This document shows positions 2,931 to 17,695 of a stretch of DNA of 64,000 nucleotides, piece by piece. Made by a program: the position numbers and the translations under genes. Source of the DNA: Escherichia phage ALITA; sequence record PP359570, one strand, 5' to 3'. Below the pieces are notes generated by a model, which was given only the letters and a program-made list of their open reading frames with translations, searched no databases and had not been told where the DNA came from. How positions within the stretch are numbered: position 1 is the first letter of the stretch; every line of letters begins with the position of its first letter.

Positions 2931-4337
2931 ATGCCAGCACCAAAATCATGGGAACAATATAAAGAAGAATTAACACCCCTTGCTAAAAATCACAACATTC
3001 AGATTCTGGGTTATATTGGTGAATGGAAAGGGAGCAAGACTAAACTTAAGCTATCTTGCTCTGATCATGGGGAGTGGGAAAGTACCATAATCAATAGCTT
3101 TAAAACTAAAGGCGGTAAATGTTGCCCCGATTGCAATGGTCGTAGAAAAGTAACAGAAGAAAAGGAATGTATTTCCCTTGTTGATGTTGCTAAAGAAAGA
3201 GGGTTTACTTTTATAGGTCTTGCCGAAGAGTGGCGAGGTGTGCTAACAAAAATCCGCATAGTTTGCCCTAAACATGGAGAGTGGAACACCACGACCATTA
3301 GTGGTTTTAGGAAGGGACGTGGTTGTCCGGCATGTGCAAGTAATAAGCCGTTAACATGGGAAACAGAATTACCGATCTTGGAAGAGATAGCACAGAAGAA
3401 GGGGTATCAGGTGTTAGGGTACGTGGGAGAATGGAAAGGGATTGATACAAAACTTGATTTGTTGTGTCACTGTGGTAACAGATGGGATACTACAAGTATT
3501 AACAGTTTTAAACATGATCATGGTTGTCCTTTATGTGGGTATGAGAATACAAGGAAGGCACAAACAATACCCGACGATCAACATATTGCAGATTTCTTTT
3601 CTACAGGGAAATTTAAGGAAGGCACTATCTTTACCAATACAGGGAAACGTAGTTGTAGTAAAAACAAGGACATTATCTGGATGATCGAATGTCCTGTTTG
3701 CTCTCATGATGAGTATGTGCAAGCAGGTGTATGTGATGGTAAGTTTTATATGACACGTAGCGATCTTAAGGCTGGACACTTGCCCTGCCGCTGTGCAACT
3801 AACTCTCATTATACAGAAAATCAGATTACCTACAGGGTAAAAAAGGAAGTAGAAGGGAGAGGGTATGTCTGGGTAGGTTGGATCGGTAAACCGTCTATAA
3901 GACTGGGTAATTTTAAATATCTTTGTCTTGTTCATGGGGAACAAATTGGTAGTGCTTATCGCTTACTATATCAGGATAATGGTTGTCCACAATGTGCAGG
4001 TCATAGTCAGCAGCAATTGTATGTTAATGTTGTTAAAGATAATGGTATTATAGTTGCTCTTAAGTTTGGTATATCTAAAGATAGTGCTAGGAGATTAAAC
4101 ATTCAAAATAGGCGTAATATGTTTTTTATGGAGCGTATTTGTTTATATGATTTTAGTACAGTGAAGCAGTGTAAGGCTGCTGAAAGAGCTATAAAGAAAA
4201 AATTAAAAACTGGTATCTTAACAGCAAGAGAGTTGAAAGATGGTTATACAGAAACAGTAAGTGTTTCTGATTTGGAAAATCTTCAAAAAATTATTACACA
4301 ATATGGTGGCAAATTAGTATACAGTAAGGAGGTGTAA
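2931..4337 (+). CDS. putative GIY-YIG/T5orf172-family nuclease with N-terminal Zn-ribbon repeat modules (homing-endonuclease-like)
   Basis: 4-5 repeats of ~45 aa module GEW.G..TKL.L.C..HGEW.TT.I.SF....GCP.C; C-terminal LYVNVV...KFGIS...RR...DGYTET resembles GIY / KIG.T / GYTE pattern. Confidence 0.5.
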   Translation: MPAPKSWEQYKEELTPLAKNHNIQILGYIGEWKGSKTKLKLSCSDHGEWESTIINSFKTKGGKCCPDCNGRRKVTEEKECISLVDVAKERGFTFIGLAEEWRGVLTKIRIVCPKHGEWNTTTISGFRKGRGCPACASNKPLTWETELPILEEIAQKKGYQVLGYVGEWKGIDTKLDLLCHCGNRWDTTSINSFKHDHGCPLCGYENTRKAQTIPDDQHIADFFSTGKFKEGTIFTNTGKRSCSKNKDIIWMIECPVCSHDEYVQAGVCDGKFYMTRSDLKAGHLPCRCATNSHYTENQITYRVKKEVEGRGYVWVGWIGKPSIRLGNFKYLCLVHGEQIGSAYRLLYQDNGCPQCAGHSQQQLYVNVVKDNGIIVALKFGISKDSARRLNIQNRRNMFFMERICLYDFSTVKQCKAAERAIKKKLKTGILTARELKDGYTETVSVSDLENLQKIITQYGGKLVYSKEV

Positions 4338-4889
4338 ATGCGGATTACTGATAAGTATGTGTTCTTCTTCTCGGCAAAAGATGAATTTAGCAACTGGTAT
4401 CTATCATCTTTTATTGAACCTTTAGCTCCCAAGTATAATAATTCTATTACAAGTTCTGTTGAATTTACTTGTGTGGAACAATATATGATGTGGAGAAAAG
4501 CATGTTTGTTTTATGATTACAGTATTGCATCTTCTATTTTAACCGGAGATCTAAGATATACAGGAGAAAAAGAACAAGCATATTATAAACGACTAGGCAG
4601 ATTAGTTAAAGATTATGATGAAGATACCTGGGCTTCTTTACGGGAGAAGATTGTCAAGCGTGGTTTGTATCTTAAATACACACAAAATGAAGATCTCAAA
4701 AATAAACTTATCGCTTACGCAGATAAGGAGTTCGTAGAGGCAAGCCCCTATGATTCTATTTATGGTATCAAAATGGGGATGTGGGATCGGGACGTGGAAA
4801 ATAAGGATTGTTGGAAAGGGCAAAATCTTTTAGGAAAATGGCATACAGACCTTGCTGTTTATCTAAAATCACAATCTGATATTTCCTGA
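4338..4889 (+). CDS. NADAR-domain protein (YbiA-like)
   Basis: FFFSAKDEFSNWY, CVEQYMMWRKACLF.D and EASPYDSIYGIKMG match NADAR/YbiA conserved blocks. Confidence 0.6.
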   Translation: MRITDKYVFFFSAKDEFSNWYLSSFIEPLAPKYNNSITSSVEFTCVEQYMMWRKACLFYDYSIASSILTGDLRYTGEKEQAYYKRLGRLVKDYDEDTWASLREKIVKRGLYLKYTQNEDLKNKLIAYADKEFVEASPYDSIYGIKMGMWDRDVENKDCWKGQNLLGKWHTDLAVYLKSQSDIS

Positions 4890-4916
4890 TATTTTGAAAA
4901 TTTTTATTTTTATAAA

Positions 4917-4962
4917 AAGGGGTGTGGGTTTCATGTACGGAAATCCACCCTCTGAATAATAT
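4917..4962 (+). terminator. imperfect hairpin after NADAR gene (possible terminator/processing site)
   Basis: gggtgtgggtttc...gaaatccaccc inverted repeat; no clear T-run; approx. Confidence 0.25.
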
Positions 4963-5103
4963 ATCCAGAGTAAGTAGTATTCTGTACTCTGTTAATAAAG
5001 TATTTAATTTGTTTGTTGGATTATGGTGGCTGATCTTTAAAAGGCATACTATCTCTTAACTACTACTTATAACAAAACAGTAAAATCCTTTTTATAAAAG
5101 TAC

Positions 5104-5311
5104 AAAATTATTTAAAGTTTTTACAGATTTTCGGGTACAAATTTTGAAAATGAAAAGTTCAAGTTTGGTCAAAATTATTTAAAGTTTTTGTACGTATTTC
5201 TGTCCAGATTTTGAAAATGAAAACTTCAATTTTTTAAAAATTCCCCAGTTTATTTAAAGTTTTTTTGCCTTTTTCCGTAGAAAAATCAAAAATGAAAAGT
5301 TCAATTTCGTG
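5104..5311. repeat. three imperfect ~65-70 bp tandem direct repeats
   Basis: Each unit carries ATTATTTAAAGTTTTT and (A)TTTTGAAAATGAAAA(G/C)TTCAA(G/T)TT; approx boundaries. Confidence 0.6.
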
Positions 5312-5326
5312 TTTTTATAGGTGTGT

Positions 5327-5438
5327 TAATGAGAATCATTTTCGTTTGTAAATGAGAATCATTATCATTTAACTATGTAAGTGATAATCATTCTCAGTAA
5401 GAGAATGAGAATCATTAGCAAATGAGAATTTTTCTCAT
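5327..5438. promoter_or_regulatory. cluster of five Fur-box-like AT-rich palindromic motifs
   Basis: AATGAGAATCATT(ATCATT), GTGATAATCATTCTC, AATGAGAATTTTTCTCATT; one copy differs from the Fur core ATGATAATCATTATC at one position. Confidence 0.45.
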
Positions 5439-5439
5439 T

Positions 5440-6200
5440 TACAGAATAACGCGCAGGGGCGGTGTTTGTCTCGCGCTCCCGTGTCCCCTCGCCATACAAT
5501 AAGAATAGCATAACCAATAACAAAAGCAAGCGATTATTTTTATCTTTACATTTCTTTACAAATTTATTTTAGACGAGCTACCGGCGATCAACCTTCCAAC
5601 CAGTGCCCCCTGGTATGTTAGCCCCGCCTTTACGCCGTGGGGTGGCGTTTCCTCTTCTGTATGTAAAACAGTATAAGCCCGATCCCTGGGCTTGTCAAGA
5701 TTATTTTTTGTTTTCTTGCCAGGATAGGACACCTAACCAAAAATACATGTCGCCCCGCGCCCCTGGTGGGATCTTGCTTTCCCCGCCGCCACTGCAAGCC
5801 CATAAATAACCATCAGCGAACGGATCAAAGTGATCTATCTCTTCCACCTTATGATCGCCCAGGTTGAGAACGGTTTCAACCTTTAAGCCCGTTGCGCTTG
5901 CTACCTGGTGCACCGTGCCGCCTTGCCAGCCCAGTGAGTGCATGAGATGTAAAGAAGTATTTGTCATGGTATCGCCCTTTCTTTGTTGTGCGCCCTGGTT
6001 GGCGCGGTAGAAAGATGATAGCCGTTTCCTTCATATATAGCAAGCAAAAAAGAAATGAAAAAAAGATTAAAAAATGGTTGACGTTCCTCACCTGGTAGCG
6101 TAGTATTCATCTTGTCGAGGGGGGCAAGACACAACGACAATAAACAATAGGCGGGTGCAATGCAAGACGGGCAAAGGTGAGGATCTCCACAATCCACCGT
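5440..6200. other. G+C-rich island inside otherwise AT-rich phage DNA
   Basis: Visibly GC-rich (gcgcaggggcggtg..., ccccgcgcccctggtggg...); composition unlike flanking DNA. Confidence 0.5.
5701..5967 (-). CDS. hypothetical protein (88 aa) in GC-rich island
   Basis: ORF-track ORF, only sizeable ORF in island; no recognisable motif. Confidence 0.25.
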   Translation of the reverse strand: MTNTSLHLMHSLGWQGGTVHQVASATGLKVETVLNLGDHKVEEIDHFDPFADGYLWACSGGGESKIPPGARGDMYFWLGVLSWQENKK

Positions 6201-6339
6201 CACAATAACATTACTTATAAAAGGTTGATAACGATGATCAAGAAAGAAAATAGCTTGACGGTTGGAACGATTAACGCTATCATTCTTGCCGTTCCATTTT
6301 GGATTGTAGTTGCGGTTATTATTTTCTAAAAAAATATTC

Positions 6340-6397
6340 TTGACAACGTTTTTTAATCTGATAAGATGTATCACATAGGGCGGCAATAGTGCCGCTC
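6340..6397 (+). promoter_or_regulatory. PeSL-like cassette: sigma70-type promoter + 5' stem-loop
   Basis: TTGACA-16 bp-TAAGAT then cacataGGGCGGCAatagTGCCGCtc hairpin, SD, ATG at 6420; approx. Confidence 0.6.
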
Positions 6398-6419
6398 ATA
6401 ACAGAAGAGAGAAATAATC

Positions 6420-6692
6420 ATGGCATCATATAGCGCATCAATGATTGTAAAGGGTATCACTGGTAAACCTATGCGCGGTGGCGGATCTTTCGCTAACATC
6501 AATATTGATGGACGTTTATCCCTGGACGCAGCGATCACAGTGGCACGGGAAACATTTAAAAAAGAATGTAATTTCAATAAACAAGATTATCTCGGTTTTG
6601 CTATTGAAAAAACCGCGCGCTTTGTGGATTATAAAAGCCCGAAAATGATCGACACTACACTAAAAGCGCAAGATGTAGCGTTTTTGCTTTAA
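6420..6692 (+). CDS. hypothetical early protein (90 aa)
   Basis: Immediately downstream of PeSL cassette; SD agaagagag. Confidence 0.6.
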   Translation: MASYSASMIVKGITGKPMRGGGSFANINIDGRLSLDAAITVARETFKKECNFNKQDYLGFAIEKTARFVDYKSPKMIDTTLKAQDVAFLL

Positions 6693-6695
6693 GAC

Positions 6696-6756
6696 TTGAC
6701 ACTGAAAAATAATTTGATAATATATACCACATAAGGCGGGGAAATGGTTTCCCGCC
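6696..6756 (+). promoter_or_regulatory. PeSL-like cassette
   Basis: TTGACA, AT-rich -10, GGCGGGGAAATGGTTTCCCGCC hairpin; approx. Confidence 0.6.
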
Positions 6757-6778
6757 AAATCAAAGAAAGGGTAATGCA

Positions 6779-7141
6779 ATGAGCAAGCAAATCAATACTA
6801 TCATGTTTAATCTGGTATCTTTCCGCGATGACGTGAAAAACCTTTCGCGTGATGCAGTGGATGCACGGATCGAAAGCTATCGCACACAGATCGCAACGTT
6901 ACCGCTGAAACGTGATCAACATGCCGCTAATATGATGCTTGATGCTATGATTAAAAAGATGATTCAATGTGATCTTACCCTGGCTTATGAATATGCTGGC
7001 GATCTCTTTGTAACATATAGCAAGCCCGTTCCAGGTATGAGCACCACGGAAGAATTGCATGCCTTAAATCTGCGACAAGATGCATGGGATAACATGCGCC
7101 GTGTTATGGTATGGGTAGAAAGCGGTAAAATTTACGAATAA
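6779..7141 (+). CDS. hypothetical early protein (120 aa)
   Basis: Downstream of PeSL cassette; SD aaagaaaggg. Confidence 0.6.
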   Translation: MSKQINTIMFNLVSFRDDVKNLSRDAVDARIESYRTQIATLPLKRDQHAANMMLDAMIKKMIQCDLTLAYEYAGDLFVTYSKPVPGMSTTEELHALNLRQDAWDNMRRVMVWVESGKIYE

Positions 7142-16648: not shown

Positions 16649-16814
16649 CCTATGCCGGACACATAGGCGGCTAATAATAACGCAACTACACACCCCACAT
16701 AATAACCATCAACGATGGTTATTATTTGTGTTTATGTAGCTTGCAACAATTGCAAGCGCAACAATATACATGGTATATTGTATTCCCTTACATTGTTGCG
16801 GTGCGTTATTATTA
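16649..16814. other. nested inverted-repeat structure (outer 12-bp stem enclosing hairpins); candidate structured ncRNA or origin element
   Basis: gcctatg-ccggaca-cataggc; aataaccatc-aac-gatggttatt; gcttgcaa-caa-ttgcaagc; outer gctaataataac ... gttattattagc; approx. Confidence 0.4.
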
Positions 16815-17117
16815 GCTAATGTTTAGAACATTGGCTATAATATAAGCTGCATATAATAAACTATGCAATAATAAACATGGTGAATAATGACACCGATGAT
16901 CATAATGCGCCACCCTCCAGGGGGCGCTATGTAAACACAAAGAAATCTTTCTTGTCAAGAAAATATTGCCACTATTGCGCAAAATTATTTTTATCTGAAT
17001 AGATGATTTTTCATACTATTGCCCCTATAACATACCTCATTTGTTGAGCCTACTTTCTTAAAAGCGCAATAAATCAGAATTATCTTGATTTTTAGGGCGT
17101 TTTATAGTACAGAAAGT

Positions 17118-17142
17118 ATGCAAATGATAATCATTATCAGCT
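17118..17142. promoter_or_regulatory. Fur-box-like motif (closest to consensus)
   Basis: cAAATGATAATCATTATCag: 16 contiguous bases identical to the Fur consensus core; approx. Confidence 0.45.
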
Positions 17143-17299
17143 ATCTTCCACGGGTAGCACTATTTCACGCCAGATCATTTCATTTGGCAAGGTGTATATA
17201 GATGTTTAGACTTGCCAAGCCATTGATTTACTTAGAATTTATCTGTTTTGTTGTGAGTAATACCTTTCTTACTCAGAAAATAATCAAAAGTCTTATAAG

Positions 17300-17341
17300 T
17301 CATTGAATGATAATACAAATGATAATTATTCTCATTGATAT
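17300..17341. promoter_or_regulatory. Fur-box-like motif pair
   Basis: gAATGATAATacAAATGATAATTATTCTCATTgata; approx. Confidence 0.35.
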
Positions 17342-17695
17342 TTGAGGGGGACGGTCGGCAGAAATCGGGGGGCGCTGAAAATCGCGTTAAGCACCTCTCG
17401 CAAGCGAGCAGTATTTTGCGGCAAGTTATTGATATTATTGACTTTACGCTTATGAAAAGGGGGTGTGTCGAAATAAATCGGGTATACCGGAAAATTTTTG
17501 TGGCATAGATATTTATTTGTCTATATTATGTACAAAGGGGTGTATTAAAAATAATAGGTATATATAGAATAATTGATAGGGAAATCCTATACTAATCCCT
17601 CCATTAATGATGTTTCTATGTTGCTGTTATTGTAATAGATGAAAAGACGCTGTATGATGTGTGGCATGAAACGTAAACTTATAAAGGAGTCTGAT

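Follow-up and report, generated by a model that had tools for sequence, protein, structure and literature searches.

The window analysed here is a 64,000-nt stretch of Escherichia phage ALITA (sequence record PP359570), a phi92-like myovirus, and its most prominent G+C peak is an island at positions 5440-6200. On sequence evidence, the left part of this island, a non-coding element at 5441-5700 that combines a minus-strand promoter with a core of about 80 nt, is probably the gene of a structured non-coding RNA (ncRNA). We lean towards a minus-strand early unit in which the small protein gene gp224 is followed by a stand-alone structured ncRNA of about 130-225 nt. Among the broad-host-range coliphages, rV5-like and phi92-like myoviruses belong to those isolated most often, and they serve as components of therapeutic cocktails; almost nothing is known about their early regulation. 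The element is more conserved than most proteins of these phages and provides a handle on this regulation. Should the RNA capture a host factor or sense iron via Fur, it would represent a new family of phage-encoded regulatory RNAs.

Conservation and age of the island

Sliding-window analysis (761-bp windows) verified the G+C-rich island that an earlier note on this DNA had described. The G+C content of 5440-6200 is 47.8% compared to a mean of 37.1% (standard deviation 0.026; z = 4.13), and the island forms the top G+C peak of the 64 kb, with a maximum of 0.48 at 5441 and only 0.03% of the windows as high. Its composition is patchy, with G+C fractions of 0.62 (5446-5500), 0.23 (5501-5574) and 0.56 (5575-5700) followed in the right half by 0.50 (open reading frame (ORF) 5701-5967), 0.40 (5968-6077) and 0.46 (6078-6234). 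The left edge lies at about 5446, while the right edge fades out at about 6130-6230. Since a very A+T-rich stretch (4950-5439; 490 bp, G+C 0.25) adjoins its left side, the island appears more conspicuous. The 88-amino-acid (aa) minus-strand ORF at 5701-5967, present as the earlier note had listed it, is gp224; its third-codon-position G+C is 0.53 versus a mean of 0.33 in the long ORFs of the window, and gp224 thus adds to the G+C of the island. As a whole, the high G+C content would stem from RNA helices, from terminator and promoter hairpins and from the unusually G+C-rich codons of gp224.

The segment is strongly conserved among related phages. The region 4800-6900 matches 156 phage records, 50 of which are covered to at least 80% at about 95-97% identity. 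All of these matches are phi92-like/phAPEC8-like myoviruses (Justusliebigvirus, Phapecoctavirus) of the subfamily Stephanstirmvirinae. In an alignment of five genomes, 5440-6120 is almost invariant and the differences sit further right. A sensitive search with 5300-5700 retrieved 256 phage records from Stephanstirmvirinae and Vequintavirinae. In the distant genera, i.e. Klebsiella Mydovirus, Cronobacter and Pectobacterium Certrevirus, Salmonella Seunavirus and Erwinia Henunavirus (all Vequintavirinae), the match is confined to about 5543-5667 at 82-87% identity, and the matched stretch lies almost always under no annotation.

To account for the unusual composition, the earlier note had suggested recent acquisition (of host DNA, of a moron or of the remnant of a mobile element) or, alternatively, a non-coding RNA or an intron-like element. 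An origin as recently acquired foreign DNA would explain the atypical composition, including that of the gp224 codons, as well as the organization as a unit with its own predicted promoter and terminator in an orientation opposite to that of its neighbours; likewise, about half of the deep lineages have no gp224 beside the element. However, at least 50 relatives share the segment at the identity given above, with the same flanks, and the core is common to two phage subfamilies. Conservation of this kind is what the earlier note itself had set against a recent origin. Neither did the searches reveal a donor: BLAST found no similarity to the segment in 5,426 E. coli genomes and no match in the PLSDB plasmids, and a pattern scan of 185,579 bacterial and archaeal species (one genome each) returned eight loci, seven of them by chance, with a 4-kb contig of a metagenome-assembled genome as the sole true homolog according to nhmmer. 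At the island we saw neither a transposase nor an integrase, nor repeat borders or an empty site. Because the segment is conserved in relatives, recent acquisition was rejected, and we regard a foreign fragment of any of these kinds as extremely improbable. With respect to a moron, the island is present in all close relatives examined, and gp224 is patchy only at deep distances. As roughly half of the deep lineages are without gp224, the term accessory gene is fair, whereas the term recent is not. Judged by its distribution, the island is an old backward-facing module common to hundreds of related phages and not a recent import. A group I or group II intron or a homing element was rejected as well, given that the locus shows no match to an Rfam intron family, no homing-endonuclease ORF and no interrupted host gene. 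What remained of the earlier proposals, the non-coding RNA, is supported for 5441-5700 by conservation, covariation and promoter conservation.

Structure of the conserved core

Pattern scans of viral and metagenome contigs, with confirmation by nhmmer, enlarged the set of homologs compared in the following to 60 loci with 50 distinct sequences. Read along the plus strand, an A+T-rich regulatory region, with Fur-box-like palindromes in the enterobacterial types and other repeats in the most distant homologs, is followed by a G+C-rich hairpin-like segment, a variable spacer containing the near-invariant TCTTTACAAA, the core of about 80 nt, a pyrimidine-rich stretch and the opposite-strand promoter, the same across all homologs. 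The A/U-rich motif at 5543-5562 (plus strand TCTTTACA..TCTTTACAAA, minus strand UUUGUAAAGAAAUGUAAAGA) is near-invariant and represents a candidate single-stranded region of the minus-strand RNA. Its TCTTTACAAA part is invariant in most homologs and occurs once in the window, where it is not enriched.

The core itself (5573-5650, assigned to the minus strand) is nearly invariant across the 256 phage records. It contains an invariant long-range helix, in which CGGCG (5582-5586) pairs with CGCCG (5633-5637), an enclosed hairpin (5597-5603/5610-5617), with a stem of variable sequence and length and a loop of 4-14 nt, and a pseudoknot helix CCCC/GGGG (5622-5625/5639-5642) that crosses the long-range helix. 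In other lineages the latter is replaced by CCAA/TTGG, CCAG/CTGG or CCAG/TTGG. Within a 29-sequence alignment, 89% of the cells are compatible with the core pairing versus 82% in shuffles, and the covariation score amounts to 0.170 versus 0.057 in shuffles (reached by 0 of 500), while slid partners score at most 0.074. Compensatory changes are found in six core pairs, with both the hairpin and the crossing helix covarying. The alignments hence contain the features by which a pseudoknot was recognized here, namely at least two helices, one of them crossing, with compensatory changes.

A protein-coding role of the core was considered and dismissed. ORFs are found on both strands, but indels of 1-2 nt in the hairpin loop, which occur among close, near-identical relatives, break the frame and thus rule out a reading frame. 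Some GenBank records nevertheless annotate features across the core ('HNH endonuclease' in OY757067.1, 'attL' in PQ002170.1 and 'hypothetical protein' in several others); because of the frame-breaking indels these small-ORF and feature calls are probably spurious. In more than 250 phages, an RNA gene could be added to the annotation and the spurious small ORFs across the element deleted. Much of the core conservation resides in the primary sequence of the joining segments, a pattern seen more typically in binding scaffolds than in simple antisense RNAs. Near-invariant loop sequence placed on a covarying scaffold likewise fits a binding scaffold better than a simple antisense seed.

The Infernal/Rfam comparison proposed in the earlier note did not point to a described family. 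For positions 4500-7000 of the window Rfam 15 gave only chance-level matches, none of them over 5446-5700, and no match over the element in ten diverse homologous loci. ARAGORN detected no tRNA or tmRNA genes in the whole window. None of the matched phage records carries an RNA annotation over the element, and a literature search, which included a search for the core sequence itself, found no description of it. Resemblances to 5S rRNA (CAGAAG.G.AAACGCC) and to SRP RNA are superficial or restricted to this lineage, have no Rfam support and were attributed to chance. A Shine-Dalgarno mimic or ribosome sponge was also rejected: GGAAGGUGGAUC would pair with the 3' end of 16S rRNA in most lineages, but the ALITA variant GGAAGGUUGAUC breaks this pairing, which is thus not conserved. 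Similarly, short complementarities within the window were discarded as targets as they are not conserved in relatives.

Predicted promoter, strand and ends of the RNA

On the minus strand the core is preceded by a predicted sigma-70-type early promoter (5670-5708) that agrees with the consensus at 11 of 12 positions. It consists of a -35 hexamer TTGACA (5698-5693), a 17-nt spacer that forms a G+C-rich hairpin and a -10 hexamer TATACT (5675-5670), with an A-rich upstream tract AAAAATAATC at 5708-5699. The predicted start of the ncRNA is at about 5662-5664. Its upstream/-35 signature, AAAAATAATCTTGACA, also marks the plus-strand early promoters at 6330, 8961 and 9697. Minus-strand sigma-70 matches of 9-12 out of 12 positions are present in 49 of the 50 distinct homologs. 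Their -35 hexamers read TTGACA, TTGACG or TTGCAA and their -10 hexamers TATACT, TATATT, CATAAT or TACAAT, with the A at position 2 and the T at position 6 being kept. The hexamers are spaced by 17-18 nt, the promoter always lies 19-23 nt from the first core helix, and the spacer is a G+C-rich hairpin, with sequences unrelated between lineages. Position-conserved hexamers around a drifting spacer are what would be expected of an independent sigma-70 unit. The spacer hairpin (5675-5693) was in addition flagged as terminator-like and is a candidate terminator of gp224; on the gp224 strand its loop reads GAAA, GCAA or GUAA in many lineages.

This conserved minus-strand promoter is the best sequence-level indication of the strand. 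A-rich loops of pseudoknots suit minor-groove contacts to a G-C helix. The two crossing helices are joined by a loop of 7 nt that is rich in A when read on the minus strand, and by analogy this loop would suit such contacts with the all-G-C helix. Three further attempts to assign the strand were abandoned. The wobble pairs of the core are evenly balanced, as the pseudoknot helix contains G-U pairs possible only on the plus strand in three lineages and only on the minus strand in three others. A conserved terminator is of no help either, as the minus strand has none across lineages. The left hairpin, a G+C-rich imperfect hairpin at 5451-5492, had been read by eye as favouring the plus strand, but an alignment-level test recovered no consensus structure across lineages and this reading was dropped. 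On the minus strand this hairpin (-14.4 kcal/mol) is followed by GUUAUUCUG; it may serve as a terminator-like 3' end of a minus-strand RNA or as a 5' hairpin of a plus-strand RNA. In ALITA it is the only terminator candidate for a minus-strand RNA. As no intrinsic terminator is conserved, the length of the RNA is given as somewhere between about 130 and 225 nt.

In the model towards which we lean, an ancient transcription unit would point backwards, i.e. along the minus strand, inside the plus-strand early region. An early promoter with a leader hairpin (6043-5990) would drive gp224 (5967-5701). The G+C-rich hairpin directly after the gp224 stop codon would be the likely terminator of this gene and at the same time form the 17-nt spacer of the second, near-consensus promoter (5698-5670), from which the ncRNA would start leftward at about 5663. 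The first 90 nt or so of the RNA would fold into the compact pseudoknotted core with its near-invariant joining segments, followed by the A/U-rich conserved stretch, and in ALITA the RNA may end, after about 225 nt, with the G+C-rich hairpin 5492-5451. We infer that the host RNA polymerase makes this RNA abundantly right after infection, and that it acts as a stand-alone structured molecule whose partner, a protein or an RNA, would be conserved across Enterobacterales or these phages.

Several observations weigh against this model. Both the firing of the promoter and the minus-strand RNA are predictions. The folding energy of the element is no better than that of shuffled sequences (z = +0.4 and +0.5 for the two strands), and that of the core taken alone gives a z of about 0; because the z-scores are about 0 on both strands, it is the covariation that carries the claim of structure. 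The long-range helix is neither supported nor contradicted by covariation because it never varies. The split of the wobble pairs and the lack of a canonical intrinsic terminator of the minus-strand RNA conserved across lineages, both described above, belong here as well, and neither a target nor a partner was found in the 64-kb window, in which the conserved motifs are single-copy and not enriched. Finally, Fur boxes abut the far end of the element, where some lineages show a plus-strand promoter-like sequence (TTGAAT-18-CAGAAT, 8 of 12 positions). An Av-05-like phage (locus L028) carries a 40-nt insertion at the boundary between the left hairpin and the spacer, AGCCGTTCTCGGCT then TATCTCTTTGTT, which resembles an intrinsic terminator of the plus strand placed shortly behind the promoter-like sequence; the same locus has the best plus-strand Fur-box promoter (TTGAAT-18-TAGAAT). 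The sequence of L028 hints at a short plus-strand transcript, at least there.

Fur boxes, repeats and the adjoining A+T-rich DNA

The cluster in question, five Fur-box-like palindromes of the AATGAGAATCATT type at 5325-5440 (without strand), abuts the non-coding element and lies outside the island. All five sites match the phage palindrome, and three sites at 5325-5419 deviate by at most 3 mismatches from the 19-bp E. coli Fur consensus GATAATGATAATCATTATC (0.04 expected by chance). Over the whole window, 21 matches to the palindrome pattern were counted versus 3.5 expected, and 6 matches to the E. coli consensus versus 0.04 expected. All enterobacterial-type homologs have one or two Fur boxes at the corresponding position; in the most distant homologs their place is taken by other repeats. 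Further Fur-box-like palindromes are located in a long non-coding region (16192-16206, 16250-16264, 17120-17139 and 17320-17334), and a G+C-rich stretch (17345-17420) comes after the box at 17320, a layout as at 5440. The boxes at the element could regulate a plus-strand promoter in response to iron, could act on the end of the minus-strand RNA by blocking or modulating it, or could serve a separate purpose.

The first of these options leads to a functional RNA read from the plus strand. In this case a Fur-repressed promoter in the box cluster would fire at low iron; the RNA would start at about 5446 with the G+C-rich hairpin, continue through the core and end near 5632-5660. Such an element would be for the phage what the iron-responsive small RNAs RyhB and PrrF are for bacteria. 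Near-consensus Fur boxes indeed lie at most 10 nt from the left end of the element in all enterobacterial-type homologs, an invariant GAAT directly precedes the element, and in 10 lineages the TTGAAT-18-CAGAAT sequence has a Fur box in its spacer. The replacement of the Fur boxes by other operator-like repeats in the most distant homologs is expected of a host-specific regulated promoter, and the second combination of a Fur box with a G+C-rich stretch (17320-17420) agrees with this option. The plus-only G-U pairs of three lineages, the plus-strand terminator-like sites called at 5624-5648 and a weak hairpin with a pyrimidine tract at 5632-5660 as putative end can be added. However, the candidate promoter never exceeds 8-9 of 12 positions, it is found in about 10 lineages and not in that of ALITA itself, and many lineages lack the essential A at position 2 of the -10 hexamer (CTGAAT, CGGAAT). 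The sole Rfam hint, to PrrF (E = 8), covers the Fur boxes alone. Instead of a U-tailed terminator, either strand offers weak hairpins with interrupted tails. Moreover, the most distant homologs have the core and the minus-strand promoter and are devoid of Fur boxes and left hairpin, and a plus-strand RNA would leave the strongly conserved minus-strand promoter unexplained. We therefore consider a functional plus-strand RNA unlikely.

Both strands are combined in a further proposal, according to which the locus would be an iron-sensing sense/antisense RNA switch of virulent phages. The strong early promoter would drive constitutive synthesis of the structured minus-strand RNA; under iron scarcity, Fur would leave its boxes and thereby permit a convergent plus-strand transcript or minus-strand read-through, so that the level or form of the RNA is altered and early phage development is tied to the iron status of the host. 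Fur-box palindromes recur at 16.2-17.3 kb in ALITA and in the injection-stop region of T5-like phages. We deem such a switch quite unlikely; if true, a virulent phage would read the metal regulator of its host, and this would suggest that large virulent coliphages generally make use of host Fur, a practice not recognised so far. The resemblance to T5-like phages concerns the Fur-box cluster at 5328-5420, which matches, for example, EC105 (9839-9924) and 3sent1 (9865-9933) at about 75% identity. The match is located in the left terminal repeat of T5, in its non-coding 'injection stop signal' region, which is rich in repeats and palindromes. In a preprint on this region (bioRxiv 10.1101/866236), a search for the word 'iron' gave no match, and Fur is not mentioned in 12 passages from the 27 places matched.

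The A+T-rich DNA beyond the Fur boxes raises the possibility that the element acts as DNA or as a DNA-RNA hybrid. Origins activated by transcription or R-loops are represented by ColE1 RNA II, T4 oriF/oriG and lambda ori. By analogy, a G-rich transcript extending into the A+T-rich region 4950-5440 would prime or activate replication; alternatively, the core would be a protein-binding site. The promoter in fact points from G+C-rich DNA into 490 bp of 25% G+C, the transcript would be G-rich (plus-strand GC skew of -0.2 at 5551-5850), and the A+T-rich region holds three direct repeats of about 70 bp, which have a counterpart in Cronobacter phage CR9, where a set of three repeats with another sequence occupies the equivalent place. 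Conservation of primary sequence goes beyond what the helices need, and GAAA or GCAA loops, very stable also in single-stranded DNA, are frequent in the promoter-spacer hairpins. On the other hand, no DnaA boxes are found nearby and the cumulative GC skew does not change at the locus, its switch being at about 28 kb, so that an origin could be identified by neither sign. A covarying pseudoknot helix together with a hairpin free to vary in sequence and length is typical of folded single strands and not of duplex sites. As this reading draws on analogy, we judge a role in replication or as a DNA site very unlikely, and a minus-strand ncRNA remains the explanation we prefer. The ALITA repeats (5089-5307; about 67-75 bp each) lie just left of the Fur boxes. 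In CR9 (locus L006) the three repeats of about 60 bp are found at about 940-1150; the iteron-like arrangement is kept while the sequence differs.

The gp224 gene, known RNAs and neighbouring features

The protein gene of the predicted unit, gp224 (5701-5967, minus strand; phi92 gp224, phrog_19316), is, from its conservation, a genuine gene and not a chance ORF. Homologs of 86-93 aa, down to about 40% identity, are present in large phage contigs, and the dN/dS values of 0.06-0.5 against ten homologs indicate purifying selection. AlphaFold predicts an all-helical protein of five helices with high confidence (pLDDT 94, pTM 0.87; 19-sequence alignment). The protein matches no Pfam family, contains no endonuclease domain and matches no protein of known function or structure. 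Among the PDB profiles, the only resemblance (E = 1) is to an XRE-type prophage protein. A helix-turn-helix regulator of the XRE/Cro type was rejected because matches are below threshold and no significant sequence or fold match was obtained, and a protein resembling ribosome modulation factor was rejected on equally sub-threshold matches. An exhaustive profile search yielded about 200 representative clusters of similar small proteins; distant matches to very large proteins were leucine-rich-repeat artefacts.

The promoter-like site of gp224 (TTGCTA-17-TATCAT, 6043-6015, minus strand) agrees with the consensus at 9 of 12 positions and is followed by the leader hairpin GCGCCAACCAGGGCGC at 6005-5990 (read from the sequence); this stretch is nearly invariant in five relatives. 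In 27 of the 60 loci a gp224-like ORF, in some cases of only 40% identity, lies beside the element, and wherever found it is placed immediately beyond the promoter, on the strand of the RNA and 30-70 nt off. In other loci, e.g. those of CR9, SSE121 and Hena1, gp224 is missing and the promoter and core are kept. Thus, the RNA unit is the constant part and gp224 the accessory partner.

With regard to known RNAs, the arrangement is reminiscent of DapZ and MicL, enterobacterial small RNAs of the 3'-UTR (3' untranslated region) type that have their own promoter just after the stop codon of a coding gene. As in these cases, a short non-coding unit, with an RNA of about 100-250 nt, is found behind a protein gene on the same strand, with a sigma-70 promoter that overlaps the end of the upstream unit. 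In contrast to them, the phage RNA, encoded by a virulent phage, lacks a U-tailed intrinsic terminator as well as an identified seed or target, nothing indicates that it depends on Hfq, and its core is a pseudoknot with near-invariant loops instead of a short conserved seed. With RyhB (RF00057) and PrrF (RF00444) the element shares a near-consensus Fur-box cluster adjoining a small non-coding element. Yet it matches neither family in sequence or structure, is devoid of a U-tailed terminator, and its conserved promoter faces the Fur boxes rather than lying under them. 6S RNA and CsrB/CsrC sequester a cellular factor, and T4 RNA C and D and phi29 pRNA are small stable phage RNAs with a structural or unassigned role. 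The phage RNA may function in a manner similar to the factor-sequestering ones. The predicted strong early promoter, the stand-alone RNA and the loop-dominated conservation on a scaffold are features shared with this group; unlike its members, the element shows no Rfam 15 similarity, does not keep repeated GGA motifs across lineages and has no identified partner. The element is thus best filed as a putative new family within the phage-encoded, promoter-equipped structured RNAs, coupled to a conserved small protein gene.

T4-type phages contain early cassettes composed of a promoter plus a stem-loop (PeSL). Similarly, in the case of gp224 and of each of its right-hand neighbours, a small ORF is combined with a ribosome-binding site, a short G+C-rich stem-loop and a sigma-70-like promoter, and such cassettes are gained and lost between the relatives of ALITA. 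The differences are that the phage is not T4-type, that the gp224 cassette (promoter-like site and leader hairpin at 5990-6043) is inverted with respect to its neighbours and that an extra RNA gene would lie behind it. Divergent predicted early promoters are found within 5968-6234. The variable right-border cassette (6078-6329, plus strand) comprises an early promoter-like match (TTGACG-17-TAGTAT, 6078-6106), a G+C-rich leader and an ORF for a hydrophobic peptide of 31 aa (6234-6329). The part at about 6124-6400, including this peptide, is absent from phage PHB05, with the junction inside stem-loop sequence, and in phi92 it is replaced or extended by an extra ORF. Early promoter-plus-stem-loop cassettes are being shuffled at the right border of the island.

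Two further regions of the window deserve mention. To the left of the locus, the product of 2931-4337 contains five CapR-homology repeats and a weak T5orf172 match (E = 0.006, below the Pfam threshold), and 4338-4889 encodes a NADAR-domain protein. Further right, about 1.7 kb at 15950-17640 are free of plus-strand ORFs of at least 50 aa save two short ones. Nowhere in the window is the A+T content higher (G+C 0.21 near 16190); the stretch contains many short CTATCTAA-like repeats as well as Fur boxes and may act as origin, terminus or control region.

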